Source of the DNA: a plasmid
Reading direction: 5' to 3' (one strand)
Length of the DNA: 64,000 nucleotides
Sequence record: NZ_CP064874.1
Of this stretch, positions 16,928 through 33,847 are shown one piece after another (position 1 is the stretch's first letter; each line of letters opens with the position of its first letter). A program made the translations under genes and the position numbers. The notes beneath the pieces are model-generated. The model was not told the origin of the DNA, made no database searches, and saw only the letters and a program-made list of their open reading frames with translations.

Positions 16928-19900
16928 TGCTGGCTCATCTCCGTTGCGTCGTTCCAGAAGGGCTCCCAGTCGTATTCGACGCGCGCCGCGCGAGGATCGA
17001 TGGGCTGATCTATGGGGTGCCTCAGGTAGCGCACTGTCGTCGTGTCATCCTCCGCTACCTGGACGAGCGCGAGCACCGAGTGGTCGGCCTTGTTCAGCGC
17101 AGTGACCGCTTCCTGCCGGGTGAGCACGAAAGTGCGGCCGCCGACGACGCGGCCCTTCACCTCGATGAAGTCGAGACTCCGCCCGGTGTCGGACTCGATG
17201 TCGTAGCCGGGGTTGTTGTGGTGCATCTCTGTCGGATCGTGCCCGAGCGCGTGCTCGACTCGGAGAACGGCATCGACGGCCAGACGCTCCACCCGCGTTG
17301 TCTCCCTGGCACGGTCAGCTGCGCCTTCCGGGTCAGTCTGAGCATCCAGCCATCCCTGCGTGACGACTAGACAAGCGCCGGTCACCCGAGGCGGGCGAAC
17401 CGAGATGTCACGTTCTTGCTCAAGTTCTCGTAGCCGTCGGTCGAGTCGACGGGCCAGGGCCTCGGCCCGTTCCTGCATTTGAGATGCCGGGAGGCGGGTC
17501 TTCCTGCCCGCTCGCTCCTGTTCGCTCAGCTCGAAGGCACGGCGGTCCCAATAGTTGATCTCGCGAGTAAGGCGCTCGCGAACGAGGCGCTCGGTCTTGT
17601 CAACGCGCTCGATGGTGCGTCGGCTGACTTCGTCAGCGTGCTGCCGAGCGATCGTGACCGATGCCTCGCGAATGACGCGACGGTCTAGATCGGCTGCCTG
17701 TGCCCAAGGCTCACCGAGCAGCGGTTGGCTTGCCTCCACTTCCTCGTCAGTGGGGACCTCGAAGTTCGGGATCGGCGAGCCAGTGAGAGGCGTGATGGTT
17801 CCGTCTTCGTCGATACGGGCGTACTGGGCGCGACGCGACACGACACGAGGCTGCCCATCCTGCGCGATGCGTCCGTCGGTGACGTCGTGTTCGAGGAGGC
17901 TGACAACGTAAGGCTGAGTCGTCAGGTCAGAGCGGTCGACGAGGACCGCTCCGCGACGGAGCGCGTCGATGTAGCGGTCGGAGACGACGCTCATCGTGGC
18001 CGACATCAGCGGGTGGCCCGGGTGTAGGAGCGTCGCGAGGCGGTTGTTGCCGTCTACTCGGACGTACTTCGGGTCGAAGGTGACGCGGTAGTACTCGTCG
18101 ACCACGGGCTGGCCGTAGCCGGTAATGCGGTCGCGCTCCTTGATCTCGCCAGGCACTCGCTTGATCTCGAAGCGGTGGCTCTCGCGCATGCGGAGCTGCC
18201 CGCCCACGTCAGCGAACGCACGGTGAAAGAACGCCTCGACGTGGTGGGGCTGGAGGCGGGCCGCCTCGGCTCGCTCCATCTCACGTCTCATGTCGTCGAC
18301 CTCAGTGTCGCTCATCGCGCCGGGCACAAGCTGGTTCGCCTTCAGCAGCTCGGGGATGCCGTCGGCGATCTTGGGGTCGACGACCTCGGTGAGGTAGCGC
18401 TCGCGCTCCGGCCTGTTTGCCTCGCGGATAGCGGCGATCATCAGGTCGCGCAGTGCGTTGCCCTGGAAGAGCTGACCGAGGACGTCGTAAACGCGCCCGC
18501 CGAGCGTGGCGCGCTGCTCCTCGAGCTTCTCCAGCAGCCGCGTGTACACATCGCCCTCGCGGGTGTCATCGGCGACGAGCGACCACATGAAGCACGTGTT
18601 GGGCTGACCAATACGGTGCACCCGCCCGAAGCGCTGTTCGATGCGGTTGGGGTTCCACGGCAGGTCGTAGTTGATCAGCAGGTGGGCGTTCTTATGGAGG
18701 TTCACGCCTTCGCCCGCAGCATCGGTGGCGATGAGGAACACACAACGCTCGTTCTGCTCGAAAGTCTCCTTCGCCTTCTTGCGGTCTTCCCGCTTGGTAC
18801 CTCCGTGGATGGTGATCACGGCGTCGTCTCGGCCGAGGTGCTGAGTCAGACGCATAACCAGGTCGTCGAGGGTGTCCTTGTGCTCGGTGAAGATGATCAC
18901 CTTGCGACGCGCACCGGTGTCATCGCGCATCTCGTCGGTGTCGTCCAAGGTGTCGCGCAGGGCATCCCACTTGGCGTAGGTGGGTGACGATTTCACAGCA
19001 GACGACTTCACGAGGAGCCGATCGACGACGAGGATCTCGGTCTCGAGTTCCTCCGGCGTGCGTGCGGTCGTGGCTCCAGCGATCGCCTGGTCTTCGAGCG
19101 CCTCGCGTTCCTCGTCGGTGAGGTCTTCCAGGTCGTCCCAGTCCTCGGGCACATCGGGGGTGTCCGACTTCACTGCGGCGTACATGCGCGCTTCGCGCAG
19201 CTCGGACTCAAGGCGTGCCTTGCGGCGTTCGAGGGAGCGGTGGATCGCCGCGGGTGATGAAGCAAGGCGACGCTGGAGCGTCGTGAGCGCGAACCCGACG
19301 GCAGTCCGACGACGATTGTCACCCTCGATCGCATCGGCGCGGTTCATCTCGTCACGGACATAGTCGGTGACGGCGACGTAGAGGTCCTTCTCGGCCTGGG
19401 ACAGCTCGTACTTGACCGTGAACGCGAAACGCTCGGGGAACAGTCGCGTGCCCTCGAACGTACGAAGCTCCTCCTTGACCAGACGGCGCATGAGATCCGA
19501 GACGTCGACCTTGCGGCTTCCCTCCCGGGCGACGCCCTCGAAGCGGTCGGAGTCGAGCAGCGCCATGAAGAGCTGGAACTGCTCCTCTTTCCCGGAGTGG
19601 GGCGTCGCGGTCATCATCAACAGATTGCGCGCGTGTTTCCCCAGCTCCTCGGCCATCTGGTAACGCTTGGTCTTCTTGACCTCGTTGCCCCAGACCGTGG
19701 CCGACATCTTGTGGGCTTCGTCGAAGATGATCAGGTCCCAGTCGACCTCACGGGCCTTGTCGAGGATGCCTTCGCTGTTCCGCGCGAGGACGTCGAGTCG
19801 TGCTAGCCAGAGCCCGCCTCGTGCGAAGGGGTTGCCCTCGTGAAGGATCTTGTCGCGAGTGAGGCTCTCGAACTCCAGGTCGAACTTCTCCCGCATCTCC

Positions 19901-20412
19901 TCGTCCCACTGATCGACGAGCACCCCTGGCGAGACGACCATGACATTCGCCGCATCGCCACGGAGCAGGAGTTCCTTGATGAGCAGGCCCGCCATGACCG
20001 TCTTGCCGGCACCCGGATCGTCGGCCAGAACGTAGCGCAGCGGCTGCTTGTGGAGCATGATCTCGTAGACCGCGCGCAGCTGATGCGGCAGCGGCTGCAC
20101 GTCGCTGGTGCCGAGGGCGGCCTGCGGATCGAAGAGGTACGCGAGCTTCATCCGACGCGCCTCAGCGGCCAGGAGGAACGAGTTGGGGTCCGCATCGAAG
20201 CTGAATACTTGGCCGGCCACGACCTCGCGCACCTGCGAGATCGCGTTGGCGAAGACGATCTTCTCGCCAAGCCCGGTGTCGGTACGATATGCCACGTTCG
20301 CCGAGTCGTCAGTGAGGCGCTCGACGGCAACGATCTTCACCGGATCAGGCCCTGCGAGGCCGGTCACGGTCGCGCCAACACGGACGAGATCAAACATCGA
20401 TGAGGTCGTCAC
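16924..20412 (-). CDS. SNF2/DEAD-like helicase with C-terminal DUF3883
   Basis: Contains LADDPGAGKTVMAG (motif I), DEAHK (motif II), and helicase C motifs (…QRFGRVHRIGQ…). The C-terminus …GYDIESDTGRSLDFIEVKGR… is DUF3883-like. It overlaps the MTase start by 4 bp. Confidence 0.85.
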   Translation of the reverse strand: MTTSSMFDLVRVGATVTGLAGPDPVKIVAVERLTDDSANVAYRTDTGLGEKIVFANAISQVREVVAGQVFSFDADPNSFLLAAEARRMKLAYLFDPQAALGTSDVQPLPHQLRAVYEIMLHKQPLRYVLADDPGAGKTVMAGLLIKELLLRGDAANVMVVSPGVLVDQWDEEMREKFDLEFESLTRDKILHEGNPFARGGLWLARLDVLARNSEGILDKAREVDWDLIIFDEAHKMSATVWGNEVKKTKRYQMAEELGKHARNLLMMTATPHSGKEEQFQLFMALLDSDRFEGVAREGSRKVDVSDLMRRLVKEELRTFEGTRLFPERFAFTVKYELSQAEKDLYVAVTDYVRDEMNRADAIEGDNRRRTAVGFALTTLQRRLASSPAAIHRSLERRKARLESELREARMYAAVKSDTPDVPEDWDDLEDLTDEEREALEDQAIAGATTARTPEELETEILVVDRLLVKSSAVKSSPTYAKWDALRDTLDDTDEMRDDTGARRKVIIFTEHKDTLDDLVMRLTQHLGRDDAVITIHGGTKREDRKKAKETFEQNERCVFLIATDAAGEGVNLHKNAHLLINYDLPWNPNRIEQRFGRVHRIGQPNTCFMWSLVADDTREGDVYTRLLEKLEEQRATLGGRVYDVLGQLFQGNALRDLMIAAIREANRPERERYLTEVVDPKIADGIPELLKANQLVPGAMSDTEVDDMRREMERAEAARLQPHHVEAFFHRAFADVGGQLRMRESHRFEIKRVPGEIKERDRITGYGQPVVDEYYRVTFDPKYVRVDGNNRLATLLHPGHPLMSATMSVVSDRYIDALRRGAVLVDRSDLTTQPYVVSLLEHDVTDGRIAQDGQPRVVSRRAQYARIDEDGTITPLTGSPIPNFEVPTDEEVEASQPLLGEPWAQAADLDRRVIREASVTIARQHADEVSRRTIERVDKTERLVRERLTREINYWDRRAFELSEQERAGRKTRLPASQMQERAEALARRLDRRLRELEQERDISVRPPRVTGACLVVTQGWLDAQTDPEGAADRARETTRVERLAVDAVLRVEHALGHDPTEMHHNNPGYDIESDTGRSLDFIEVKGRVVGGRTFVLTRQEAVTALNKADHSVLALVQVAEDDTTTVRYLRHPIDQPIDPRAARVEYDWEPFWNDATEMSQQ

Positions 20413-20486
20413 GACTCTCGTTCACTCCCTCGGTTGGCAAGTTGATCAGGATACGTTGGGCCGGCGACATTGCGGCCGATCGGGGG

Positions 20487-20669
20487 CTAGTCTGTGGCGC
20501 CGGCATCCCCTCGACGCACCCAGTCGTCGACCTCGCTCGCCTGGAACTTCCACAGGCGCCCGACCTTGTGCGCCGGCATCCCCTTGTCGGAGATCCAGGC
20601 ATAAATCGTGTCTTTCGTCACACCCAAGTGCTCAGCGATGTCGTCGGCAGAGAGCCATGGTTCGGACAT
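20487..20669 (-). CDS. small HTH DNA-binding protein (excisionase/AlpA/MerR-like)
   Basis: MSEPWLSADDIAEHLGVTKDTIYAWISDKGMPAHKVGRLWKF…, 60 aa. Confidence 0.6.
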   Translation of the reverse strand: MSEPWLSADDIAEHLGVTKDTIYAWISDKGMPAHKVGRLWKFQASEVDDWVRRGDAGATD

Positions 20670-20717
20670 TCACGCCCCTATGCAGATTGAGCCGGAAGTT
20701 TCCGGGTATGACCGAGC

Positions 20718-21540
20718 CTACCCCGAGCGCTCGGTATCCGAGCCATCGCCATTCGCCCTTGTCGTGCCCTCGCCGCCAATCACCTCGAGAAGCTCCTCGA
20801 GCTGTAGGTGAAGGACGTCGTAGGCCTGCATGTAGAACATGTGATCCATGGCTGACGGCGGTGTGTCGTCGAGGTCCGCGAGTACCTCTCGAGCCTCGCG
20901 GATCGCTGTCTGCAGCCGGGTCTCGATTCCGGGCAGGCTCTGGATCCAGGCGTCGATCACGCTGAACGGGATCGGTGCGAAGCCGTAGGCGTCGACGCCG
21001 ACATGGAACTGGTGGCCGTTGGGGCCGTGGTCGCGGGCATGCGTGTGCCCGTGGAGAAGCGGGATGCCGTCGTCCCAGCGCGGGCGATGCGACGTGTGTC
21101 GATCCTGTTCCTGGCTGTCACCGCCGTACGGGTAGTGCGAGGCAATGATCCTGTACCCGTGGCGCGTCCCTTCGATCACCTCTGGGAGGATCTCCCACCC
21201 CGCCGCTTCGTACATGGGCGTGAATCTCTCGATCGCCCGTTTCGACTGGGTTGCGGGCGAGACGCGATCGTGGTTCCCAGGCACGAGTAGCTTGCGCCCG
21301 TTGAGCCGCGCGGTGAGCCCGATCGATTCCTCGATCGGACCGAGTGCTACGTCACCAAGGTGCAGGACGACGCTGCCTGGTGAGACCGTGTCGTTCCACC
21401 GGCGCACAAGGTCGTCGTTCATCTCGTCGACCGTGGAGTATGGCCGACCGGCCAGCTCGCTGATGCGGGCGTGGCTGAAGTGGGTGTCGGAGGTGACGAA
21501 GTCGACCTGGTCGAAGTCAAACCACGGATATTCACGCATC
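20718..21540 (-). CDS. metallophosphoesterase (calcineurin-like)
   Basis: Contains D-x-H…GDxxD…GNH(D/E) motifs (FVTSDTHFSH, LHLGDVALG, VPGNHDR, HGHTH). The start is taken at MREYPWFDF (21540). Confidence 0.7.
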
Positions 21541-21945
21541 GCCGACTGAAGCTCCGGACTCAGTTTCGTTGAGGCCGAACGCCCGCCGGAGCGTGCGCTC
21601 CGCGTCGCCTGCGGGCTCGGGAGGCAGCTGGGCGATCTCGCTCTGCAGCTGCTCCCGCGCATCTTCGATCAGTCCCCGGTTCTCGTCGCGCCACTCCCGA
21701 ACGCCAGAGTCGCGCAGAAGCCCATGCCCTGCACTGCCGTCGTATCCGAGTAGTAGCTCTGTGCCGAGGGCGGACGCCATGACGCGTGCATCGACGGTGC
21801 GGCTCGCGCGCAGGATGGACAGCGTCGTTGCGGCATCCGCGCCCGACACGTCGACGCGGTAGTTCTGGATGTCGCCGTGCTCGGTTGTCTCGGTGCCGAC
21901 ATGAGTGACGACGATGGTGCGATCGCCGATGATGATCTCGCGCAT
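21532..21945 (-). CDS. hypothetical protein
   Basis: Start taken at MREIIIGDRTIVV (21945). Overlaps the next gene by 9 bp. Confidence 0.4.
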   Translation of the reverse strand: MREIIIGDRTIVVTHVGTETTEHGDIQNYRVDVSGADAATTLSILRASRTVDARVMASALGTELLLGYDGSAGHGLLRDSGVREWRDENRGLIEDAREQLQSEIAQLPPEPAGDAERTLRRAFGLNETESGASVGDA

Positions 21946-21976
21946 GCGACCTCCTGACATCGAGCCGGCCAAGCTA

Positions 21977-22359
21977 TCAGCAGTTGACGCCGGCGCGGCC
22001 GTGGATACGCCCTGGCCGAACGACGTCGTCGTGTCCCGGAATGTAGGCAATCGCGCCGAGTCGGGACCAGTAGCTGATCAGCCAACGGTGCAAGAGATCG
22101 GTCTGCTCGCGGCGTTCGAGCAAGGTGCGGTCCGGGTCTTCGATGATGTCGTCCCAATCGGGGCTCGAGAACACGGCATCGATCAGCTCGGCGCACGATG
22201 GGCCGGTACCGTGTCGATCCCACCACGCGAGAGTCAGTCGCCCTGCTTGGGTTGCGTTCGTGGAGCCCCCGGGTTCTTCGATGGTCCCGATGAGTGCGCT
22301 GAGGTAGGGATCTTCGGCGGCCAGGACGAAGGAATCTTGGTTCAGTTCCGCCGCGCTCA
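21977..22359 (-). CDS. hypothetical protein
   Basis: Starts MSAAELNQDSFVLAAEDPYLSAL. IS copy A sits 25 bp upstream of this start. Confidence 0.4.
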
Positions 22360-22432
22360 TACAGTGCAGAATGCCATACGGATTAGGGCGTGTCTGACAA
22401 AGGTTGAGGGGATCGGTTGAGACGCTGGAGCG

Positions 22433-22828
22433 GTGACGCGGTTTCGGTTGCTTACGGATGCTCAGTGGTCTCTGATCGATGGGATGTTGCCGAGGCCGAC
22501 GGGTCGCCCGGGTCGGAAGTTCTCGGACGCGCGGACGATGCTGGAAGGGATCATTTACCGGTATCGGTGCGGGATCGCGTGGCGCGATCTTCCTGCAGTG
22601 TTCGGCCCGTGGCAGACCGTGTGGACCTGGCATCGCAGGCTCGCGACCGAAGGCACCTGGGACTCGATCGTGCAGTCGCTGATCGCGCAGGCCGACGCCG
22701 AGGGGCTGGTGGACTGGTCGGTATCGGTGGATTCGACGATCACGCGGGCGCATCAGCACGCGACGAACACGAGTCGCCCCACAGGGGGCTGTATCGAATT
22801 ACACGAATCCGGGCGTCGAGCCGCCTGA
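22433..22828 (+). CDS. IS427-group transposase OrfA
   Basis: MTRFRLLTDAQWSLIDGMLPRPTGRPGRKFSDARTMLEGIIYRYRCGIAWRDLP… (DUF4096-type). Confidence 0.8.
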   Translation: MTRFRLLTDAQWSLIDGMLPRPTGRPGRKFSDARTMLEGIIYRYRCGIAWRDLPAVFGPWQTVWTWHRRLATEGTWDSIVQSLIAQADAEGLVDWSVSVDSTITRAHQHATNTSRPTGGCIELHESGRRAA

Positions 22829-22910
22829 TCATGCTATCGGCCGCTCCCGGGGCGGCCTGTCGACGAAGATCCACCAGCTCGTTGACGGGAAGGGGCTGCC
22901 GCTGGTCACG

Positions 22911-23327
22911 GTGATCACCCCCGGACAGGCCGGTGATTCGCCGATGCTGCTGCCCTTGCTGGATCAGCTTCGCGTGGGTCGCCCCGTCGGTCGCCCTCGC
23001 ACCCGCCCGGACGCGGTCCGGGGCGACAAGGCGTACTCGTCCCGCGCGATCCGGTCACGCTTGCGGGGGCGTGGGATCAAAGCCGTGATCCCCGAGCCCC
23101 GCGACCAGCAGGGGCACCGGAAGCGTCGCGGTTCACGAGGCGGAAGGCCTGTCGGGCTCGACACCGACGACTACAAGAACCGCAACGTGATCGAACGCCG
23201 GTTCTGCCACGCCAAGCAATGGCGAGGCCTCGCGACCCGCTACGACAAACACGCGATCACCTACCGCGCCGCCGTCCTCATCCACGCCGCCATCGCCTGG
23301 ACCAGAACGCTGTCAGACGCACCCTAG
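22911..23327 (+). CDS. IS427-group transposase OrfB (DDE; probably expressed as OrfAB by frameshifting)
   Basis: …VRGDKAYSSRAIRSRLRGRGIKAVIPEP…NRNVIERRFCHAKQWRGLATRYDK…. Confidence 0.75.
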   Translation: MITPGQAGDSPMLLPLLDQLRVGRPVGRPRTRPDAVRGDKAYSSRAIRSRLRGRGIKAVIPEPRDQQGHRKRRGSRGGRPVGLDTDDYKNRNVIERRFCHAKQWRGLATRYDKHAITYRAAVLIHAAIAWTRTLSDAP

Positions 23328-23439
23328 CCGGCTGGCCCTGAGTCCGATGAGACGTCGCACAACCGAAGGGATACGAGGCGGTCGCCCTGTCATGGTTCAC
23401 TCGGCGGCGCGCCGGGCGCCGCCTGGCGGAGCCGCCCTC

Positions 23440-25995
23440 TCAGCGGACGGGTTCGTCGGCGTGCCGGACGTCGTCCGACGACGCATCCCCGGCTTCCGTC
23501 GCCGCCCCGTGGATCGGATGGCTTCGCTCGAGCGCGGCGCCCTCGACGTCGACGTTCGGGAGGATCCGATCGAGCCAGCGCGGCAGCCACCACGCCTTCT
23601 CGCCGAGCAGGTGCATGAGCGCGGGGATCAGCAACAGCCGCACCACGAACGCATCGAACAGCACGCCGATCGCGAGGCCGAAGCCGAGCGGTCGCACGAG
23701 CGCCAGGTGCGAGAAGATGAACCCGCCGAACACCGACACCATGATGATGGCCGCCGCGGTGACCACCGCTCGCCCGTTCCGTAGCCCGGCGACAACCGCC
23801 GTCCGGGCCGGCACCCCGTGCACGAACGCCTCTCGCATTCCGGTCACCAGGAAGAGCTGGTAATCCATCGCGAGACCGAACAGCACGCCGATGAGGATGA
23901 TCGGTGCGAAGTTCAGCACCGGTCCGGGGGTGTGGACGCCGAACACCGGCCCGAGCCATCCCCACTGGTAGATCGCCACCACGGCTCCGAGTGCGGCGAA
24001 CAGCGACAGCACGAACCCGGCTGTCGCGATCAGCGGCACGAGGATCGAGCGGAACACCAGCACGAGGATGAGCAGCGACAGCCCCACGACCAGCGCGAGG
24101 TACACCGGCAGCACGCCGGCGAGTTTCTCGGAGATGTCGATGTTGCCGCTGGCCTGGCCTGCCACCCCGAGCTCGATGTCTCCGATCGGCGAGAGCTCGC
24201 GCAGGTCGTGCACGAGCTGCTCGGTCGATTCGGTGGACGGTCCGCCGATCGGCACGACCTGGAAGGCGAGGAAGTCGCGGTCCTCGGACACTCCGACCGG
24301 CGCGACCGCGACCACGCCGCCCTGCTCGAGCAGCTGACCGGCTAGGTCGGCCTGTACCGCGACGACGTCGTCCTCATCGATCGGGGCCGGCAGCGCGGCG
24401 GTGACGAGCAGCGGTCCGTTCTGGCCGGCTCCGAATGCCTCGGCCGCGGACGTGTAGGCCCGGTACTGGCTGGAGTCGACGGGCTCGGATGACCCGTCGG
24501 GCATGCCGAGCCGCATGGAGAGCGCCGGGATCGCGATGATGAGCAGCGCGCCGACGGCGAGTGCGGCGCGCGCGAACGCACGCGAGGTCTTCATGGGCTT
24601 CAGCTCGGGGCGAGCGTGCGATTCGTGGCCGATCTGGCCGCGAGCCCGCCGATTGACGATCCGGAGGCCGATGATCCCGAGCATCGCAGGCGTCAGGGTC
24701 ACCGACAGGAGTACCGCGACCAGCACGCATCCGGCCGCGACCGTTCCCATGACGCCGACGAAGGGGATGCCGGTCACGTTCAGGGCGAGCAGTGCGACGA
24801 GCACCGTCGAGCCTGCGAAGACCACGGCGTTGCCCGACGTGCCGTTCGCGAGGGCGATGGATTCGTGCACGTCGACACCGGCGAGCACTTGCCGTCGATG
24901 GCGGTTGATGATGAACAGCGCGTAGTCGATGCCCACGGCCAGTCCGAGCATCATGCCGAGCACGGGGGTGGCCGACGACATGTCCACGACGCCCGAGAAG
25001 GCCAGCGACCCGGCGACGCCGACGCCGACGCCGACGAGTGATGAGACGATCGGCAGCAGCGCCGGCAGCAGCGCGCGGAACATGATGACGAGCGTGAGCA
25101 GCGCGAGCGCGACGCCGACGATCTCGCCGATGCCGATGAGTCCCTCGACCGCGGTGGCGATCGTCGCCGAGTAGTAGTCGACCTGCACCCCGTCGATTTC
25201 GGCCTGGTCGAGTTCGTCCGAGACCGCTTCCACGACCTCGGACGGGACGGAGAACACGTCGTCCTCGAACATCACCACGCCGATCGCAGTGGCACCGTCC
25301 TCGGACACGGTTCGGATCTCCGAGGCGGCATCCATGAGCACCCGCGCGTCATCGAGCTGAGCGCGCTGCTCGGCGAGTTCGCCGGCACCGGCGTCCAGCT
25401 CGCCGCGGCGATCCTCGAGCTGAGCGGCACCGGCATCGAGCTCGGCCTGCTGCGCGGCGAACTGCGCCGCTGCGAGCGCGTACGTCCCCGCGGACTTCGC
25501 TTCAGCGATGGCCGCGTCGAGTTGCGCCTGAGCGGCCTCGAGCTGGGTTCGCGCAGCCTCGATCTGAGTGGAGCCCTCGTCGAGCTGGCGCTGCGCTTCG
25601 TCGAGCTGGGCCGCGCCGGCTTCGAGCTGCTGCTCCTGTTCGGCGCGATCGGACGTCGCGACGAAGGGGTCGACCACATCGGCCACGCCGTCGATTCCGT
25701 CGATCTCGGCCAACATCGCGGAGATATCCCCCTGCTGGGCCTCGGTGAAGTCGGATCCGTCCTCCGTCCGGAACACGATGGTGCCGGTTCCGCCCCCGAG
25801 TTCCCCCAGTTCTTCGGTGAGCCGCTCGGTGACGCGCTCGGTCTCGGTGCCCGGGATGCTCATGCTCGACGTCAGCGTGCCGCCGAAGGAGACGAAGGCT
25901 CCGACAGCCAGGGCGAGTGCGGCGATCCAACCGGCGACCACGGCCCACGGTCGGCGCGCGGCGAATCGTCCGACACGGTAGAGGAGTTCTGCCAC
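23440..25995 (-). CDS. MMPL-family RND-type membrane transporter
   Basis: 851 aa with 12 predicted TM regions in two blocks. A coiled-coil-rich periplasmic insert is present. Typical MMPL segments are LGMMLGLAVGIDYALFIINRHRRQ and LFGLAMDYQLFLVTGMRE. Confidence 0.85.
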   Translation of the reverse strand: MAELLYRVGRFAARRPWAVVAGWIAALALAVGAFVSFGGTLTSSMSIPGTETERVTERLTEELGELGGGTGTIVFRTEDGSDFTEAQQGDISAMLAEIDGIDGVADVVDPFVATSDRAEQEQQLEAGAAQLDEAQRQLDEGSTQIEAARTQLEAAQAQLDAAIAEAKSAGTYALAAAQFAAQQAELDAGAAQLEDRRGELDAGAGELAEQRAQLDDARVLMDAASEIRTVSEDGATAIGVVMFEDDVFSVPSEVVEAVSDELDQAEIDGVQVDYYSATIATAVEGLIGIGEIVGVALALLTLVIMFRALLPALLPIVSSLVGVGVGVAGSLAFSGVVDMSSATPVLGMMLGLAVGIDYALFIINRHRRQVLAGVDVHESIALANGTSGNAVVFAGSTVLVALLALNVTGIPFVGVMGTVAAGCVLVAVLLSVTLTPAMLGIIGLRIVNRRARGQIGHESHARPELKPMKTSRAFARAALAVGALLIIAIPALSMRLGMPDGSSEPVDSSQYRAYTSAAEAFGAGQNGPLLVTAALPAPIDEDDVVAVQADLAGQLLEQGGVVAVAPVGVSEDRDFLAFQVVPIGGPSTESTEQLVHDLRELSPIGDIELGVAGQASGNIDISEKLAGVLPVYLALVVGLSLLILVLVFRSILVPLIATAGFVLSLFAALGAVVAIYQWGWLGPVFGVHTPGPVLNFAPIILIGVLFGLAMDYQLFLVTGMREAFVHGVPARTAVVAGLRNGRAVVTAAAIIMVSVFGGFIFSHLALVRPLGFGLAIGVLFDAFVVRLLLIPALMHLLGEKAWWLPRWLDRILPNVDVEGAALERSHPIHGAATEAGDASSDDVRHADEPVR

Positions 25996-26129
25996 GCGAG
26001 AGGCCTTTCATGAGGAGACGAGACGAGGGCGCACCTACGAGCCACCACCGAGGATAGCCGACATTTGTCGGAAATCGGAGCGGCTGGGTTCTGCGTGGCG
26101 TCTCCCCATCCCGCTGGCACAATCGACGC

Positions 26130-26696
26130 ATGGATGCCCGCGTCGTCCGCACCCGACGGTCCCTGCAGGAGTCGCTGTTCGCCTTGGCTCGCGAGCGGCC
26201 GCTCGAGGAACTCACCGTCGCCGACATCGTGCAGCGGGCAGGAGTGAATCGGAGCAGCTTCTATCAGCATTACGCCGACAAGGACACCCTTCTCGCCGAT
26301 GCCATCGACACGGCGGTCGAGCAGGCAGGGACCTTCCTGCCTGAAACGATCACCGCACCGGACGGCCCGCAACGCGCGCTCCTCGCCTACCTGCGACACA
26401 TCGACGAGCATGTGGCGGTCTATCAGCGCGTGCTCGGACGCCACGGCTCGGCCGCGGTGGCGTTCAGGTTGCGTGATCGCATCGAGGCCGTTGCCCGCGA
26501 GGGCCTCGGGCGAATGGGCACGCACGCATTCGAAGGGATCCCCCTCGACGTCGTCAGTGCCGGCATCGCCGGCTCAGCACTCGGCGTCATCGAGGCGTGG
26601 CTCGCGCGCGACCCCCGACCGCGAGTCGAGACCGCTGCGGACTGGGTATGGCGTGTGCTCGTCGGCGTCGGCGATGCAATGGAGGAGGGGCGCTGA
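26130..26696 (+). CDS. TetR/AcrR-family transcriptional regulator
   Basis: N-terminal HTH …LTVADIVQRAGVNRSSFYQHYADKDTLL…. Diverges from the MMPL gene. Confidence 0.85.
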   Translation: MDARVVRTRRSLQESLFALARERPLEELTVADIVQRAGVNRSSFYQHYADKDTLLADAIDTAVEQAGTFLPETITAPDGPQRALLAYLRHIDEHVAVYQRVLGRHGSAAVAFRLRDRIEAVAREGLGRMGTHAFEGIPLDVVSAGIAGSALGVIEAWLARDPRPRVETAADWVWRVLVGVGDAMEEGR

Positions 26697-26719
26697 CGGT
26701 ACGCCCCGTCCACAGCCGG

Positions 26720-27136
26720 CTAGGGTGCGTCTGACAGCGTTCTGGTCCAGGCGATGGCGGCGTGGATGAGGACGGCGGCGCGGTAGGTGATCGCGTGTTT
26801 GTCGTAGCGGGTCGCGAGGCCTCGCCATTGCTTGGCGTGGCAGAACCGGCGTTCGATCACGTTGCGGTTCTTGTAGTCGTCGGTGTCGAGCCCGACAGGC
26901 CTTCCGCCTCGTGAACCGCGACGCTTCCGGTGCCCCTGCTGGTCGCGGGGCTCGGGGATCACGGCTTTGATCCCACGCCCCCGCAAGCGTGACCGGATCG
27001 CGCGGGACGAGTACGCCTTGTCGCCCCGGACCGCGTCCGGGCGGGTGCGAGGGCGACCGACGGGGCGACCCACGCGAAGCTGATCCAGCAAGGGCAGCAG
27101 CATCGGCGAATCACCGGCCTGTCCGGGGGTGATCAC
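26720..27136 (-). CDS. IS427-group transposase OrfB (copy B)
   Basis: Identical 138-aa product to 22911..23327. Confidence 0.75.
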   Translation of the reverse strand: MITPGQAGDSPMLLPLLDQLRVGRPVGRPRTRPDAVRGDKAYSSRAIRSRLRGRGIKAVIPEPRDQQGHRKRRGSRGGRPVGLDTDDYKNRNVIERRFCHAKQWRGLATRYDKHAITYRAAVLIHAAIAWTRTLSDAP

Positions 27137-27664
27137 CGTGACCAGCGGCAGCCCCTTCCCGTCAACGAGCTGGTGGATCTTCGTCGACAGGCCGCCCCGG
27201 GAGCGGCCGATAGCATGATCAGGCGGCTCGACGCCCGGATTCGTGTAATTCGATACAGCCCCCTGTGGGGCGACTCGTGTTCGTCGCGTGCTGATGCGCC
27301 CGCGTGATCGTCGAATCCACCGATACCGACCAGTCCACCAGCCCCTCGGCGTCGGCCTGCGCGATCAGCGACTGCACGATCGAGTCCCAGGTGCCTTCGG
27401 TCGCGAGCCTGCGATGCCAGGTCCACACGGTCTGCCACGGGCCGAACACTGCAGGAAGATCGCGCCACGCGATCCCGCACCGATACCGGTAAATGATCCC
27501 TTCCAGCATCGTCCGCGCGTCCGAGAACTTCCGACCCGGGCGACCCGTCGGCCTCGGCAACATCCCATCGATCAGAGACCACTGAGCATCCGTAAGCAAC
27601 CGAAACCGCGTCACCGCTCCAGCGTCTCAACCGATCCCCTCAACCTTTGTCAGACACGCCCTAG
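26721..27664 (-). mobile_element. IS427-group insertion sequence, copy B (identical to copy A, inverted)
   Basis: Encodes the same OrfA and OrfB proteins (27219..27614 and 26720..27136, minus strand). It has the same termini as copy A. Confidence 0.85.
27219..27614 (-). CDS. IS427-group transposase OrfA (copy B)
   Basis: Identical 131-aa product to 22433..22828. Confidence 0.8.
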   Translation of the reverse strand: MTRFRLLTDAQWSLIDGMLPRPTGRPGRKFSDARTMLEGIIYRYRCGIAWRDLPAVFGPWQTVWTWHRRLATEGTWDSIVQSLIAQADAEGLVDWSVSVDSTITRAHQHATNTSRPTGGCIELHESGRRAA

Positions 27665-27709
27665 GCCTCATGCGGTAGTGGGTGGTGCCTCGACTCTCCG
27701 GTGTTGGAA

Positions 27710-28021
27710 TCAGCGGATCGTGAGATCAGGAGTATCGGCTGGCAGGAGGTCGCCAATCTCCACGTCGAGCACCTGCGCCACGGCCAACAGCGTCCTGACT
27801 GACGGGTTCGCGGGAGTGCCTGGCCGAGACTCGCCCTTCTCGAGCTTCTGATACGTGTAGCGACTGAGGTTCGCCTCGTACGCGACACGATCTTGGCTGT
27901 AGCCGACGCGCGCCCGCTCGCGCTGAATGTTCTGACCAAGCTCGCGGGCGTATTGTTCCCAGGCGGTCGGTGGAGTCGCGTGGGAGGGCACGCACCCAGG
28001 CTTCCGATTAGGCCTTCGCAA
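27710..28021 (-). CDS. XRE-family HTH transcriptional regulator
   Basis: …LGQNIQRERARVGYSQDRVAYEANLSRYTYQKLEKGESRP…TLLAVAQVLDVEIGDLL. The start may be internal. Confidence 0.55.
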   Translation of the reverse strand: MRRPNRKPGCVPSHATPPTAWEQYARELGQNIQRERARVGYSQDRVAYEANLSRYTYQKLEKGESRPGTPANPSVRTLLAVAQVLDVEIGDLLPADTPDLTIR

Positions 28022-28080
28022 GTAGGCCTAATCGGTATGGCAATCTCGGCCTGCAGCGGGAGTCCCGGCGCGTGAAGCGA

Positions 28081-28500
28081 TCAGCTGCCGCGAGGCGTGG
28101 GTGTGGGGGAACGCTTCATCGGAGTGACGTTGCGCGTTGGGTCTTCACCGCGGAGCAGCTGATTCTCGACGTGCAGCTCGGCCACCGCGGTCGCTGCGAT
28201 CGTGAGTTGCGCCTCGAGTTCGCGAATTCGCGCGCGGAGGCCCGCGATCTGTGTCCCACGGTCCGCGAGTGATCGGTTGAGCGCTTCGAGTTCACGATCG
28301 CGCGGCTGGGTTCCGCCTGCCCGCAATGCCCACTCTTCGAGCACGGACTTCGCGCGGTTCATCGTCGCGCGGCTGACACCGGCTTCGCGGTAGAGGTTCT
28401 CCTTGATGAGACGGCCGTCGGTGCGCACTGCTGTGCCAGCGAAGAGCCGCTCCATCGCATCGCGGAGCTTGCGTTCCGACGTGCTGATGGGTTCAGGCAT
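28081..28500 (-). CDS. hypothetical coiled-coil protein, fourth gene of the recombinase-trio operon
   Basis: Start MPEPISTSERKLRDAMERLF at 28500 overlaps the 701-aa recombinase stop by 8 bp. Contains a coiled-coil LRARIRELEAQLTIAATAVAELHVENQLL. Confidence 0.5.
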   Translation of the reverse strand: MPEPISTSERKLRDAMERLFAGTAVRTDGRLIKENLYREAGVSRATMNRAKSVLEEWALRAGGTQPRDRELEALNRSLADRGTQIAGLRARIRELEAQLTIAATAVAELHVENQLLRGEDPTRNVTPMKRSPTPTPRGS

Positions 28501-30598
28501 CCGTGAATCTCCTCGTGATCTTGCGTACGTCTTTGAGTTCGGCCTCGAGCTGCTCGCGATTGTGCGACGCCATGCTGCGGTCGCGGAGCTTTGCCACCAG
28601 ATCGCGCTCTTCGGCGACCCACACGGGCGCGTGTTCATCGGTCACGACCGAATTGCCGCAGGTGGTCGGCTTGCACCGGTTGGGGATCACACCGCTTGCG
28701 GCAGCCTCGGCAGACAGACCTTTGAGGCAGGCCGCCTGTTCCGGATCGCCGAGGCAGTGGTTGATCGTTCCCCACCGCAGCGTGCTGAAGCGGTCACGCA
28801 GCAGAGTGCGCAGGGTCCGCTCATCTCCGACCTTCACTGCGATGTCGACCTCGGCGGTGGCGTTCACGAGCTCGTCTCGGAAGCGTTGTGCGCCTGCGCC
28901 GGCGAGCTTGATGTCGTCGACAGAGTCGGACGACCACATGCCGACGAGGCGTGAGGCGACGGCCTCCTGCAGTTCGTGCTCGAACTCGGCGGCCCACTCG
29001 GGCGTTTCGCTCGCATACCCAGACGTTGTGCCGTTCGCTACGGCCCGACGCGCTGCGTGCTTCAGCTGGATACCGAGCGCGACTTCGCCATCCGGTTGTT
29101 GGGCAGTGATGACGGCCATCGTGCGTCGAAACATGTGCGGGGCGAGATGGAAGTGTGGGATCGGCTCGAAGCCGGCCTCTCGCCCAATGTCGTTGAGCTG
29201 GGGTATGAGCTTCTTCAACTCGTCGTGCCGGTCGAAGGTCACCAGTTGGCCTTCGCTCTTCTGGCTGCGTCGACTCGATCCGAAGACGGCTTCGCCCACC
29301 GCGAGCCGCTCGGCGACGCTGATCGCCTGTGCTACCGGCTCGATGATCCACCAGTTGCGGCGATGCGTTCCGCGCTTGCCTTTCCGTAACTGGGATGCGA
29401 CCGCGGGCGCACCGTAGAAGGTCGTGAGCGCTCCCTTCTTGATGCTCAGCAGCTCGGAGTCGCGCATCATCGAAAGTGCCGCACAGAAGACGTAGCACGC
29501 GTTGCGAAGAACCTTGAGTTGAACTCGAATCGTGGCCGGATCGAAGCCATCGATCCAAGGGCCGGTGGAGCCGTCGGCCTTCCGCACGTCCGTGATCTTC
29601 GAGCGCAGGCCACCGCGCGCAGTGGAGATCTCGCCGGCGTCGATGGCTCTGGCGATTCGTTCGCGTCGGCGCCGCACCTCACTCCGTGATGTCTCGGCGA
29701 ATAGGTGTTTGCTGTGGCCATCGGAAACGAGCAGCGATAGGAGAGTCCAGTGGATCTCACCTTCCGTGAAGCGGCCGGCGGACATGCGATGGAGGGGAAC
29801 AGTCGACCCGGCGGCGACGAGCCAGGTCTCGATTGCGTCGTCGGGATCGCGGACAGCACGGCGTTCCTCGGGTGGACGCTCGAGAGTCGACCATTTGTCG
29901 GCGGCCGCGAAGATGTCGTGCGAGAAGACATCGATGTACTGCCAGCAGGCGCGAAGTAGCGGCCACCAGACGTGAGGTGGGATGACGGGCGTGCTCAGCT
30001 CCTCGCTGAACTTCTGCCCGCTCAGCGCGATCGTGGTCGCCTCACCCCACGGGCGGAACGGGATCCCTCCACCTGTGATGACCCGGTCGTACTGGTGGAG
30101 CGCACGGACGGACTCAATCGCTGCGCGCGTGGAGGACGGGGGAATGCTCGGCTTGATGTCACCAAGGAAGCAGTCGAGATCCGCTTGGTGGAGCTCATTC
30201 AGGGGGACACTGTCGAGGTGCTCGGCATGCCAGGACGCGAATCTCTTGAGTCCGTCGAGTCTTGTGCGGATCGTCTTGGTCTGCGCGGGCGCGGCGGTCA
30301 GGTAGAGGCTCTGATCACGAAGGACCTGGTGTCCCGGATTGAGCATGGCCATCGCGATCTCGCGGGCGCGAAGATTCCAGTCTCCGGTGAACGCGCCGAA
30401 GAGCAGCACCGCTGAGTGGCGCCCCGCCGCGGGGTTCCAACCGAGTGCGCGCAAGTCCCAGCGGGAGTCGTCACCGAACGAAGAGACGGGGTACGACTCC
30501 TCTCGATAGTGATGAGGGAGCACAGATTGCTGGGCGCGCCAGTAGGTGCTGGCGGGGGCGAGTCTCGAGGCATGGCGTGCGGCAGAATCAAGACTCAC
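28493..30598 (-). CDS. tyrosine recombinase, third of the trio (RitC-like; compare Tn554 TnpB-like large recombinases)
   Basis: 701 aa. Putative catalytic boxes …HFHLAPHMFRRTMAV… and …LKHAARRAVANGTTSGYAS…. Overlaps the upstream gene by 4 bp. Confidence 0.65.
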   Translation of the reverse strand: MSLDSAARHASRLAPASTYWRAQQSVLPHHYREESYPVSSFGDDSRWDLRALGWNPAAGRHSAVLLFGAFTGDWNLRAREIAMAMLNPGHQVLRDQSLYLTAAPAQTKTIRTRLDGLKRFASWHAEHLDSVPLNELHQADLDCFLGDIKPSIPPSSTRAAIESVRALHQYDRVITGGGIPFRPWGEATTIALSGQKFSEELSTPVIPPHVWWPLLRACWQYIDVFSHDIFAAADKWSTLERPPEERRAVRDPDDAIETWLVAAGSTVPLHRMSAGRFTEGEIHWTLLSLLVSDGHSKHLFAETSRSEVRRRRERIARAIDAGEISTARGGLRSKITDVRKADGSTGPWIDGFDPATIRVQLKVLRNACYVFCAALSMMRDSELLSIKKGALTTFYGAPAVASQLRKGKRGTHRRNWWIIEPVAQAISVAERLAVGEAVFGSSRRSQKSEGQLVTFDRHDELKKLIPQLNDIGREAGFEPIPHFHLAPHMFRRTMAVITAQQPDGEVALGIQLKHAARRAVANGTTSGYASETPEWAAEFEHELQEAVASRLVGMWSSDSVDDIKLAGAGAQRFRDELVNATAEVDIAVKVGDERTLRTLLRDRFSTLRWGTINHCLGDPEQAACLKGLSAEAAASGVIPNRCKPTTCGNSVVTDEHAPVWVAEERDLVAKLRDRSMASHNREQLEAELKDVRKITRRFTDA

Positions 30599-32415
30599 AG
30601 GTGGACTCCTCGCTGAGCGATGGGGACGTGGACGACTGCGTCGAGATCGTGGGAGCGTTGGGCTCGCTCTCGCTCCGCCGGAGTGAACTCATCCAGGATG
30701 CGCTCGATGTTCCTGAGCTGCTGTCCATGGGTTGCCGCGAACTGGGCGGGCTCCATCTCGTTCTGGTGTCCGCGAAGGATCTCGCGATAGGCGAGGATTC
30801 GAGGCAGGTGGTCGGTGAACACGATCGCGTTGGGGCACGCGAAGCACATCGATGGCCGATGCTCGCATAGACGCCCGCTTCGGCCGTAGGGAGAGTCGTA
30901 CGGTGAGCTGCAGTGCGCGACGTTCATGGCTCGATCCGTCGACGTCGACTCCAACTCGGCTACCGCAGCCACCGCAAGCTCGGGTCGCTCACCAGCCCGG
31001 ATCGACGCAGCACTGGCCTTCACGAACACTGGGCCGCTGACACGGTCGAAGACCTGCTGTTGAGCTGCGTTGACCGCTGCGCCGGCCAGCACGTGAACTG
31101 TCGTCGTCTGCGCGTAGTGGCGCTGGTAGACGGCGATGCTGTGGTCATCGCCTGCCGCAATGTCGGCGCTTCGGAGCACCGCCGCTCGCACACTCTTGAC
31201 TGTCTTTCGCAGTCGGCGCGCGTCGTGAGGTCTGGAGATGGCAGGTGTGATCGACGTCAGAAGGGACGAGAACGAATTCGAGAACGAATCTGGGCGTACC
31301 TCAAGGCGTCTTGACGAAGTTCGGAACACGCTCAAGAACAGGGCGTCATGCACCGGCGACGGGCTGGCTTCCCTCAGTTCCCTCGCCCTGGAAGTCGCAG
31401 CGAGAACCCGCTCGATGAGATCGCCCGACTTCCATCCGCTGCCGCTGGCAGATCCGGACGTGGCGCAGCGTACGATCCGGCTGCGGTGGGCGCGGGCCTT
31501 GTACAGACGGACGCGTAGCGTGTCGGGGTCTGAGATGTCGATGTCGCTCAGCGAGACGTTCGACCACTCCTCGGGAGCGGCGCCCGTCTCGAGCTGCAGC
31601 AGCGTCCTGAACGCGACCAGGTCGTCGCTCGAGGGATAGAGATATGACAGCAATCGCCTGACAACCCGGCCGGAGCCTCCATACGTCGTCGCGTGTTCGG
31701 TTTCGAACGCCTCGTGCAGGTCGTTGAGGACGCCTCGGTCGCACGCCAGCATGGCCTCGCGCTCCACCATGATGCCGTCCGTCCGTCCCAGGTGGTGGAT
31801 GCCCCAGAGGATATCTTCCGCGCGTGACCACCCGTCACCGCGAGGATCGCGCCCGACCTCGAGCAGTTGATGTCCGATCGAGAGTCGCTCCTCCAGCTCT
31901 CGGATGCGGCTGCGGCAGGTATCACGAATCGCAAGACGCTCGGCATTCGAGAACTCGTCGAGAGGCGTCGCGCCGCCGCCCTGATGCAAGACCTGCCCGT
32001 CGGCCCACCGCTCGACGTCGAGGCCGACGTCTCGACCGTTCGCGATGTGGACTCGGACCAACCTTCGAAGCTGTCGACCGTACTTGTACGGCATGGTGCT
32101 CTCGGCGGGGTACGCGGCAGCCAGCCCCGACTCCCACTCATGGATCCCGTCGACCACGACGCGATCGGCCCATGCGAGGCTTGCGGTTCGCGGGCACGCA
32201 TTGGTGAGACTGCGAAGGAGACTGATGACCGCAACACGGTACTGATATGCCGTGCCGTCAGCCAGCGCGAACGTGCGTCTCATGTCGACGAGTGCGTCCG
32301 AGAGCTCAGCGGCCAGGATCGGGTGCGCGAAGTCCAGCGGTCTGATCGTGCCGTCGTTGCTCCCGCCCGCGATCGTGAACGTCATCCGACGAGGGGAGAG
32401 GTCGTGGCCGGTCAT
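30595..32415 (-). CDS. tyrosine recombinase, second of the trio (RitB-like)
   Basis: 606 aa. …RPHDARRLRKTVKS… and …HSIAVYQRHYAQ…. Overlaps both neighbours by 4 bp. Confidence 0.65.
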   Translation of the reverse strand: MTGHDLSPRRMTFTIAGGSNDGTIRPLDFAHPILAAELSDALVDMRRTFALADGTAYQYRVAVISLLRSLTNACPRTASLAWADRVVVDGIHEWESGLAAAYPAESTMPYKYGRQLRRLVRVHIANGRDVGLDVERWADGQVLHQGGGATPLDEFSNAERLAIRDTCRSRIRELEERLSIGHQLLEVGRDPRGDGWSRAEDILWGIHHLGRTDGIMVEREAMLACDRGVLNDLHEAFETEHATTYGGSGRVVRRLLSYLYPSSDDLVAFRTLLQLETGAAPEEWSNVSLSDIDISDPDTLRVRLYKARAHRSRIVRCATSGSASGSGWKSGDLIERVLAATSRARELREASPSPVHDALFLSVFRTSSRRLEVRPDSFSNSFSSLLTSITPAISRPHDARRLRKTVKSVRAAVLRSADIAAGDDHSIAVYQRHYAQTTTVHVLAGAAVNAAQQQVFDRVSGPVFVKASAASIRAGERPELAVAAVAELESTSTDRAMNVAHCSSPYDSPYGRSGRLCEHRPSMCFACPNAIVFTDHLPRILAYREILRGHQNEMEPAQFAATHGQQLRNIERILDEFTPAERERAQRSHDLDAVVHVPIAQRGVHL

Positions 32416-33824
32416 TCTGCCTTCCGATCCGCGAGGACGGCGTCGGCGAAGGTCGCGGCCTCGTCGCTCCAGCTCTCGAACACGTCCTGGATGAGTGCGT
32501 CTGTGTCCTCGATGTATCGCAGGTAGATCATGGTCGTGGCAGGGTTCGAATGGCCAAGAAGTCGCTGCACAGTCAGTCTCGGGTTGATCGCTATGTGCTC
32601 GGACAGAGTGGCCGGTCCGAGGTTGCCAGCGCGGCGGTCGGCCTCACGGGCGAGCGCGACATCGGTGAGTGCCTTGAGGAGCACGACGGCGAAGGTGTGA
32701 CGCAGATCATGCGGTGTGATTTGCGCTCGGCGCCCTCCCATCTCAACTTCAGCGAGCTCAAGGGTGCGACGACTCGCCGCGGCAAACGTGGCATGCCAGG
32801 CTCGTCGACTTATCGGTAGCCCCCCTCGGCCCAGGAACAATCCCAGCGCCTCGAGCCCGTGATCGCGTTCGATCACCGCGATTCGGCGCAGGTGCGGCGG
32901 GAGGAGATGTAGTGGCCATCTCGACCGGCGCCCGTCGAGCCGCCCACGGATGACGCCGGCAGAGACGTCGAGCTCGTCGACGACAAACAGATCGGCTCGA
33001 CGCGACCATAGTGAGTTGGCAGATGCGCGAACGACGGCACGGCGCTCCGTTCGGCGATAGAGGTCGACGGCGCGCAGTGCGGTGAGCGGAACATGGACAC
33101 GGCGCCGCTTCTGGTACTTGGCGCATGCTTCGAGGAGTACGGAGGCACCCGTGCCGGCGGGTGCGGGCAGCTCGGCATCCAGCAACGTCGAAAACTCGCC
33201 GAGTCGCATCCCTGTCGTCACGGCGACCTGCGCGCCAGCCTGGGAACGCAAGCTCGTTCTTCCCCGCCAACTCGCATCCAGCTCGCCGAGTGCGGTTTGC
33301 CCACCGAGGCCGATGTCGCGGAATGCGCGCCACTGCGCCTGACTCAACGGGCGTATGTCTGGCTCACTCCGCCACGGGTTGCGAAGCGCTGACGATCTCC
33401 CGATGGTGATCCACGGCTCACGACGAACCTGCCCGGTCTGCACGAGAAGCTGGTAGATCCCGTGAACGACGACGACGTCGCGTCGCCAGGTTGCCGGCGA
33501 GACTGCGCGATCCCCACCGCCGAGCCGCCACTCTCGGTACGCGACGATATCGTCGGCCGACGCGTGCACCACGTCAGTCCCACGATCTTCGAGGAATCCA
33601 GCGAAGCGAAGCGCGTCGTACGCGTAGTTGCGCACTGTCGACGTTGACGTCGAACCCGCAATGACCCGGAAGTAGGTCTGCCAGGGCTCAACCGGTCGCC
33701 ATCGATCGTCGAGCAGCACGGGCAGTCCGTCGGGAAGCGAACGTGAGCTCGCGTAGACGTCGCGCGTGTCTTCGTCGACGTCAGTGGGCACGGCGAGTTG
33801 GTGGTTGATGAAACGCAGATGCAT
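32412..33824 (-). CDS. tyrosine recombinase/integrase, first of the trio (RitA-like)
   Basis: Clear integrase C-terminus: …ITPHDLRHTFAVVLL… and …LLGHSNPATTMIYLRYI…. The start is taken at MHLRFINHQ (33824), which is preceded by GGAGAG and lies inside the terminal IR. The ORF-track start at 33899 would lie outside the insertion. Confidence 0.8.
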   Translation of the reverse strand: MHLRFINHQLAVPTDVDEDTRDVYASSRSLPDGLPVLLDDRWRPVEPWQTYFRVIAGSTSTSTVRNYAYDALRFAGFLEDRGTDVVHASADDIVAYREWRLGGGDRAVSPATWRRDVVVVHGIYQLLVQTGQVRREPWITIGRSSALRNPWRSEPDIRPLSQAQWRAFRDIGLGGQTALGELDASWRGRTSLRSQAGAQVAVTTGMRLGEFSTLLDAELPAPAGTGASVLLEACAKYQKRRRVHVPLTALRAVDLYRRTERRAVVRASANSLWSRRADLFVVDELDVSAGVIRGRLDGRRSRWPLHLLPPHLRRIAVIERDHGLEALGLFLGRGGLPISRRAWHATFAAASRRTLELAEVEMGGRRAQITPHDLRHTFAVVLLKALTDVALAREADRRAGNLGPATLSEHIAINPRLTVQRLLGHSNPATTMIYLRYIEDTDALIQDVFESWSDEAATFADAVLADRKAE

Positions 33825-33847
33825 CGCTCTCCGAGGTTGTTCGGGTG

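Follow-up and report, generated by a model that had tools for sequence, protein, structure and literature searches.

An inverted IS5-family pair carries a divergent TetR/MMPL module as a composite transposon in Microbacterium

Tn10 consists of the tetR/tetA genes between two copies of the insertion sequence (IS) IS10, a member of the IS4 family; it carries the major facilitator superfamily (MFS) pump TetA, generates a 9-bp duplication and moves via its outside ends, which are not equivalent to its inside ends. Outside ends are also preferred in Tn5, as documented biochemically and via Dam methylation, so that movement of the whole unit prevails over single-IS or inside-out events; this transposon is bounded by a pair of IS50 copies, one of which encodes a defective transposase. 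Genes for MMPL transporters are commonly regarded as chromosomal and lineage-specific, with envelope or efflux functions. Here, we describe a 5276-bp element at positions 22386–27661 of a 64,000-nucleotide stretch (the window) of NZ_CP064874.1, a 177,760-bp plasmid of Microbacterium paraoxydans (proteins QXE316xx/QXE317xx), in which an inverted pair of IS5-family copies flanks a divergent TetR/MMPL module. We are highly confident that this is a composite transposon. Comparison of occupied and empty sites indicates that the whole unit, not single IS copies, entered a TTAG site of the plasmid with duplication of TA, and that it entered at least five other C-TA-G sites in the chromosomes of other Microbacterium or Microbacteriaceae genomes.

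The closest architecture is that of Tn10, since in both elements inverted IS copies enclose the genes for an efflux pump and a TetR-family repressor in divergent orientation. The present unit differs in its IS family (IS5, with a 2-bp TA duplication), in its MMPL/RND-type pump, and in its high-GC Actinomycetota hosts; its two IS copies are identical and apparently intact, and the asymmetry of their ends is suggested by sequence only. The suspected preference for outside ends likens it to Tn5, in which, unlike here, the two IS copies are not identical and the preference does not have to be deduced. The element is of a known kind; what is new relative to Tn10 and Tn5 is the IS family, the MMPL cargo and the host. 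No description of this element, or of any composite transposon that carries an MMPL gene, was found in the literature.

A repeat search of positions 20000–30000 returned a single inverted pair, whose arms are exact over 951 bp (22384–23334 versus the reverse complement of 26713–27663); of the next nine bases outward, only five agree. Within these arms lie two IS copies of 939 bp each, 100% identical and inverted, at 22386–23324 (+) and 26723–27661 (−), with a TA adjoining each side of each copy. Their OrfA and OrfB proteins are the same, and both OrfB ends, which carry the right terminal inverted repeat (IRR), face inward. Across the 64 kb of the window there are two occurrences of the IS end motifs, against none expected by chance, and no further copy. 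The interior (23325–26722, 3398 bp) contains only the divergent MMPL and TetR genes. This is the arrangement that a first-pass annotation of the stretch had proposed, namely two identical inverted IS copies that bracket solely an MMPL-TetR pair; its IS length of 944 bp included the flanking TAs and a stop-codon G. The G+C content of the unit is 68–70%, versus 63–65% in the plasmid backbone.

Three independent lines of evidence show that the unit moved as a whole, and one of them comes from sites that lack it. Such sites were sought with the exact sequence of the 127-aa protein whose gene lies immediately left of the unit, and the window, minus the 5276-bp unit and one TA, was aligned to the contigs found. 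In the window, the unit occupies a TTAG site 24 bp upstream of the start codon of this 127-aa gene and parts it from an upstream XRE-type regulator gene on the right of the unit. In six contigs from unrelated samples (L047, L049–L051, L053 and L054), the two genes lie directly beside each other. At about 97% identity, five of the six alignments contain no gap, and those of L047 and L049 cover all 2001 bp; the absence of gaps means that there are no visible deletion scars. The empty junction reads ccatacggatTAggcct, in which ccatacggat and ggcct stand on either side of a single TA, with neither IS nor cargo; in the window, this TA is found outside both ends of the unit (22384–22385 and 27662–27663). 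Two further contigs are occupied sites, 100% identical to the window. On a more distant backbone, plasmid A of Microbacterium sp. No. 7 (76% identity), the sequence is collinear through the same TA and the unit is absent. These near-identical backbones, without the unit and with a single TA, help to confirm the proposed capture of MMPL and TetR by a composite transposon.

The same unit was found at other loci. The exact 851-aa MMPL protein is present in 92 blocks of the collection and, at the places read, lies beside TetR and at least one flanking IS copy; the protein record is named "MULTISPECIES ... [Microbacteriaceae]" and occurs in PAMC 28756, UMB0228, NFH-22A-Y, Tara Oceans assemblies, and others, while the IS is also carried by Microbacterium dauci. 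Four sites are complete: the window, the chromosome of Microbacterium sp. PAMC 28756 (CP014313.1), the metagenome-assembled genome (MAG) contig PABQ01000049.1, and SJYZ01000021.1; two one-sided junctions add to these. The four full copies are of equal length and at most two single nucleotide polymorphisms (SNPs) apart, except that one IS of SJYZ01000021.1 contains a 31-bp tandem duplication. All ten distinct outer flanks of the unit end in TA, nine of them in CTA. At every site, homology ends exactly at the termini of the left inverted repeats (IRL), and the flanks are unrelated. In CP014313.1, the unit splits a serine recombinase gene; when the unit and one TA are excised in silico, a 439-aa open reading frame (ORF) is restored, with a Resolvase domain complete across the junction. 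The search of other replicons for this IS-flanked cassette, which the first-pass annotation had suggested, thus returned an identical cassette and IS pair at no fewer than five unrelated loci. Among PLSDB plasmids, a megablast search found none with the transposon, only IS relatives of about 75–81% identity and one syntenic backbone, the first empty site.

Here, an MMPL gene and its repressor travel on a transposon that is near-identical in a plasmid and in the chromosomes of different Microbacterium species. Because no more than two SNPs separate copies over 5.3 kb, transfer appears to have been recent and horizontal, probably with selection for export of some compound, and selection on the pump makes its substrate worth identifying. 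The unit is a conventional, clear example of how transporter genes become mobile.

Some copies vary in structure. The 31-bp duplication of SJYZ01000021.1 (L004, 8689–8750) repeats transposon positions 386–416, in the orfA/orfB overlap; no gene is called there, and the duplication should inactivate the transposase of that IS copy. In two cases, different assemblies show the interior in both orientations relative to the flanks at a single site (site C, L003/L017 versus L007/L009/L015; site D, L005/L010 versus L008/L011/L014); this reflects either inversion of the interior by recombination between the 949-bp inverted repeats or an arbitrary choice of path by short-read assemblers. In a European Nucleotide Archive (ENA) contig, beside a Tad-pilus locus (L019, 3995–4534), a 5'-truncated IS (transposon positions 553–949 only) adjoins the MMPL side of the interior; it may have arisen by deletion, or the metagenome contig may be chimeric.

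The IS itself belongs to the IS5 family: its fused transposase scores 250.9 bits against the NCBIfam model NF033580 (cut-off 110) and matches PF01609, PF13586, and PF13340. In the left copy, whose ends were set from relatives, IRL lies outward (22386–22402) and IRR inward (23308–23324). The orfA gene (22433–22828, +) encodes a 131-aa DUF4096 protein, the N-terminal part of the transposase (PF13340, E = 1.5e-24), which is also found exactly in CP014313.1. The orfB frame (22800–23327, +) encodes the DDE domain (PF01609, PF13586) and is reached from orfA by a +1 shift near 22805–22828; its stop codon, TAG, uses the flanking TA and the next G, past the IS end at 23324. In the right copy, IRR (26723–26739) again faces inward and IRL (27645–27661) outward, with orfA at 27219–27614 and the orfB frame ending at 26720. 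Members of the IS427 group of ISfinder, to which the first-pass annotation assigned the element, are about 0.8–1 kb long, with two frameshift-joined ORFs, termini starting with GG, and a 2–4 bp duplication. The 939 bp, the +1 shift, the GGG termini, and the TA duplication of this IS fit that description, and its membership in the IS5 family is firm; the group level lies beyond the resolution of NCBIfam, so that the assignment was tested to the family level only.

Relatives of the IS are found on plasmids of Kocuria rosea and Arthrobacter agilis (two copies), at 75–77% nucleotide identity, and in chromosomes, with transposases 77–85% identical; solitary relatives occur in Microbacterium, Kocuria, and Arthrobacter, and likewise duplicate TA. 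The closest is 85% identical at the protein level, or 90% across a partial sequence. All relatives start with TA-GGGC(G/A)TGTCTGACA and end with TGTCAGAC..CCC-TA, and most are 939 bp long and lie in C-TA-G targets. One, in CP085219.1, is present in at least five copies in a single chromosome, each with a different flank and with perfect 17-bp inverted repeats (GGGCGTGTCTGACAAAG); the fused 297-aa transposase aligns with it at full length, ungapped across all 297 residues. With such IS427-type elements of Actinomycetota, the IS described here shares its length, its termini (GGGCGTGTCTGACA), its CTAG target with TA duplicated, its DUF4096 orfA and DDE orfB, and its 297-aa +1 product; it differs from the solitary relatives in its divergent IRR and in being known only as a pair around cargo.

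NCBI assigns 297-aa products to gene ranges of 895 nt both in this IS and in all of its relatives, which indicates a +1 rather than a −1 shift from orfA to orfB and makes this arrangement the normal state of the lineage, not decay. Decay of the transposase into two parts was considered and rejected, since all copies and relatives share the +1 arrangement and NCBI annotates the 297-aa product. Nor do the differing gene calls (297 aa versus 131 + 127 aa) reflect real differences between copies; the DNA is identical, and the annotation alone differs. No obvious slippery motif was identified at 22805–22828 of the window or in the corresponding region of relatives L030–L046.

Two other observations concern this lineage. 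On plasmid pAAG24-85 of Arthrobacter agilis (L028, 1504–5750), two inverted copies of a 75%-identical relative, with their IRL ends inward, bracket about 2.4 kb that contain an alcohol dehydrogenase gene and a recombinase fragment, and so form a second composite-like structure from the same IS lineage. Several insertions of the unit coincide exactly with the 3' ends of gene calls (L005, 4426; L006, 4406; other outer junctions); the CTAG target has TAG on both strands, and insertion in this lineage may favour existing stop codons or generate new ones.

The two ends of the IS are not alike. IRL is GGGCGTGTCTGACAAAG, and the outer IRL matches that of the multi-copy relative at 20 of 20 bases. The inner IRR, which ends ...TGTCAGACGCACCC, reads GGGTGCGTCTGACAGCG as its reverse complement and differs from the consensus GGGCGTGTCTGACAAAG at 4 of 17 positions (4, 6, 15, and 16). 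In the small sample of relatives examined, perfect repeats belong to multi-copy elements and divergent repeats to copies found at one site (L030, L033). The inward IRR ends are thus probably impaired, i.e., poor substrates. If so, a single IS would be immobile and an IRL–IRL pair mobile, which would account for the lack of solitary copies; the second IS copy could, moreover, hardly have come from ordinary transposition. No solitary copy of the exact IS was found in 185,579 representative genomes, in Joint Genome Institute (JGI) metagenomes (scanned twice), or in look-ups of the exact OrfA and OrfB proteins; all copies recovered stood in the context of the transposon or on collapsed repeat contigs. 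The scan of representative genomes gave one match, a collapsed 764-bp contig of M. dauci with its start exactly at CAGCCGGCTA, and the JGI scan likewise gave one, a Tara scaffold with TAGCCGGCTG at its end; when the pattern barred the transposon's own inner flank, nothing in the JGI metagenomes matched.

The steps of transposition can be proposed on this basis. The transposase would be made from orfA and orfB via the +1 frameshift, and would synapse the two outward IRL ends, which equal the family consensus; the segment from IRL to IRL would then be excised or copied, and inserted with a 2-bp stagger at TA. A stricter proposal is that of an "obligate" composite transposon, built from an IS without a working IRR, whose second copy arose from an inverted duplication that dragged 10 bp along, and which spreads only with its MMPL/TetR cargo. 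We regard this as rather doubtful. If it were true, the unit would capture in nature the moment at which a composite transposon locks into a unit transposon, and would suggest recent strong selection for the exporter across marine, polar, and (by strain name) human-associated Microbacterium. Composite transposons raise the question, posed before (PMC1676026), of why their IS copies continue to cooperate rather than move alone, and the present element offers a tractable natural case in which to study it.

Two other histories could, in principle, have led to the structure seen in the window. The MMPL-TetR genes might have been resident on the plasmid, with two IS copies inserted independently around them and the block never moving as a unit; as TA is present at every IS end, target-site duplications (TSDs) alone cannot tell single from joint insertion. 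However, backbones with 97% identity lack IS and cargo together, in collinear and ungapped alignments, and the cargo and its IS pair recur, differing by no more than two SNPs, at five or more loci unrelated to one another, so that assembly in situ has next to no probability. The pattern expected of separate arrivals, i.e., independent TSDs for each IS copy and no sign of mobility in relatives, was not what we found. Acquisition of the unit by homologous or site-specific recombination, whether within a larger island or through the neighbouring tyrosine recombinases, would suit a window rich in recombinases and other mobile elements, as well as the copy in CP014313.1, which sits among recombinase and transposase genes. 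Here again the junctions argue otherwise: homology stops at the IRL termini everywhere, the flanks are unrelated, and TA is duplicated in a CTAG-type target just as in solitary IS relatives, which makes recombination highly improbable.

The structure of the locus and its distribution are those by which a composite transposon is recognised: the same IS twice around a cargo, a TSD with an unoccupied counterpart, and presence at different loci and replicons. Several points nevertheless weigh against the interpretation developed here. Transposition of the unit is known from comparison of sequences alone. The number of sites is given as at least five because the two one-sided junctions, D (beside Iso_dh) and F (beside a gene of a WhiB region), may belong to a single insertion. 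Solitary IS copies were sought by exact-pattern scans and by exact-protein look-ups that list only the longest contigs, which limits the weight of their absence. Impairment of IRR is deduced from about 12 relatives, and the changed bases, which sit in the last transposase codons, may be neutral coding drift. Finally, the MMPL protein scores 160 bits against the MmpL3 equivalog model NF052608 (cut-off 1400) and is also far below the equivalog cut-off for actII-type transporters.

The inner junctions of the unit hold a clue to how the pair arose. Both read ...CACCC-TA-GCCGGCTG and then diverge abruptly (G or T): on the left, TA+GCCGGCTG occupies 23325–23334, and the same 10 bp are found inverted on the right, as CAGCCGGC+TA, at 26713–26722. 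These 10 bp are constant in every transposon copy found, and the short-read contigs L020–L023 and L029 break exactly after them, as expected if the repeat unit is the IS plus 10 bp. The shared CCGGCTG, followed by G or T, that the first-pass annotation had pointed out at both junctions is therefore real, but neither explanation offered for it finds support: close and distant IS relatives end at CCC-TA with varied flanks, which does not suit a longer asymmetric IRR, and insertion sites share C-TA-G only, which does not suit an insertion-site motif. The likeliest source of the identity is instead a scar of the origin of the second IS copy, which would have been co-duplicated with some flank rather than produced by a standard second transposition.

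Three accounts of these 10 bp were weighed. An inverted duplication, by fold-back or template switch at a short inverted microhomology, could have copied the IS, its TA, and up to 8 bp of flank beyond MMPL-TetR, so that two good IRL ends came to lie outside. Such an event would explain why the 10 bp are identical at both IRR junctions and then give way abruptly, and target preference leaves the motif unexplained; an IS with a divergent IRR may, moreover, not transpose alone, and no solitary copies were found. The account is purely inferential, with no intermediate found; the nearest IS-free MMPL loci (75–78% at the amino-acid level) are too diverged to reveal the ancestral flank, and gene conversion between the copies could have homogenised a later change in IRR. 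We consider inverted duplication possible and put it forward tentatively. Alternatively, the right end of this IS lineage may have been extended by TAGCCGGCTG, for example with flank gained through imprecise end cleavage, and both copies placed by ordinary transposition. The extension is indeed present in every copy seen, and assemblers collapse the repeat exactly to the IS plus 10 bp (L020–L023, L029); yet all copies represent one transposon lineage, which makes this constancy uninformative, relatives at 75–85% identity all end at CCC-TA with varied flanks, and no TA follows GCCGGCTG at either junction, unlike what a TA-duplicating insertion of an extended element would leave. This makes a right-end extension unlikely. 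That both IS copies independently chose C-TA-GCCGGCTG targets, such as a repeated palindrome CAGCCGGC-TA-GCCGGCTG, gains some appeal from the perfect 18-bp palindrome that the motif completes, with CTAG, the target of this IS family, at its centre. We consider it improbable: none of the 10 outer flanks, and no relative's flank among those examined, shows the motif past C-TA-G, and at this base composition the remaining seven bases would match by chance with a probability of about 1e-4. Neither the window nor any of the loci searched contains the palindrome, and the IS-free MMPL-TetR loci L024–L026 (75–78% at the amino-acid level), which are too diverged for this comparison, have no GCCGGCTG at the corresponding positions.

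The cargo comprises two divergent genes. The first (23440–25995, −) encodes the 851-aa transporter, which belongs to the MMPL family of the RND superfamily by its match to PF03176 in two stretches, above the Pfam cut-off (232.5 bits, E = 8e-69); its closest solved homologue is MmpL3 (E = 1e-43), a trehalose monomycolate exporter. The second (26130–26696, +) encodes a 188-aa TetR/AcrR-family regulator with an N-terminal helix-turn-helix domain (PF00440, 39.1 bits versus a cut-off of 24, E = 6.5e-10). The 134 bp between them (25996–26129), which form the shared MMPL/TetR promoter region, contain the palindrome GATAGCCGACA-tt-TGTCGGAAATC at 26053–26076, with CCGACA-tt-TGTCGG within it, a candidate TetR operator. 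By analogy with tetR/tetA of Tn10, the cargo is most likely a self-regulated module for ligand-derepressed export of a lipophilic compound: TetR would repress the divergent promoter until its ligand binds, and the MMPL pump would then export the compound. With mycobacterial MmpL3, MmpL4, and MmpL5, the transporter shares the MMPL fold family; unlike them, it has no MmpS partner in the unit. Microbacteriaceae are not known to make mycolates. In the first extracytoplasmic region of the transporter (residues ~115–224), weak matches to coiled-coil and repeat models (SMC-related; YjdP DDRRRQL repeat) suggest a coiled-coil insertion.

A comparison of the transporter with chromosomal paralogues, which the first-pass annotation had recommended, was made by identity. 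The closest non-identical MMPL proteins (77–78%) are encoded in Logan contigs, followed by those of Agromyces species (75–76%), whereas chromosomal homologues in Microbacterium reach 62–66%; no relative between 100% and 78% identity was found. The donor of the cargo was thus probably an Agromyces-like member of the Microbacteriaceae. In the relatives fetched, the divergent TetR-MMPL pairing is present at chromosomal loci free of the IS, which suggests that the transposon captured a complete native regulatory module. The pairs of Agromyces and other Microbacteriaceae have the same divergent arrangement and similar lengths, with the closest relatives at 75–78% amino-acid identity; they are IS-free, lie in varied contexts and are each confined to a single species, whereas the transposon's copy is identical across species.

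The first-pass annotation had also placed the unit on a conjugative element. A MobF/TrwC relaxase gene is indeed present at 58786–62586, and the annotation of the identical protein assigns it to a plasmid of M. paraoxydans; no genes for a type IV secretion system (T4SS), mating pore, or coupling protein were seen among the ORFs that were scanned in the window, 64 kb of the 178-kb plasmid. This bears out the proposal only in part: the unit is plasmid-borne, and the replicon probably mobilisable.

Around the unit, the plasmid bears traces of other insertions. An MmeI-type restriction-modification gene appears to be split, with its N-terminal and helicase-spacer domains at 1411–2718 (+) and its methyltransferase, target recognition domain (TRD), and C-terminal domains at 33907–35592 (+). 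The roughly 31 kb of inserted DNA between these parts, within which the composite transposon lies, end in three consecutive large genes (28493–33899, −), the last of which encodes a tyrosine recombinase; the same adjacency of recombinase and methylase fragment is found on plasmid A of Microbacterium sp. No. 7. Defence-type genes are dense at 8288–20412, 37656–40701, and 63230–63997, and include AIPR, a HEPN-DUF499/DUF1156/SNF2-type helicase cluster, a GmrSD-like nuclease, a Mom-like protein, and a DUF4194 protein. In the JGI contig L048, an occupied site whose flank is 100% identical to the window up to the outer IS end, another IS5-type element (DUF4096 and DDE ORFs; 6493–7375) follows the DUF1156 gene; its absence from the window indicates that this backbone has been hit repeatedly by IS5-family elements. 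Other transposases encoded in the window are of the ISL3 (6521–7840) and Mutator/IS256 (50551–51786) types.

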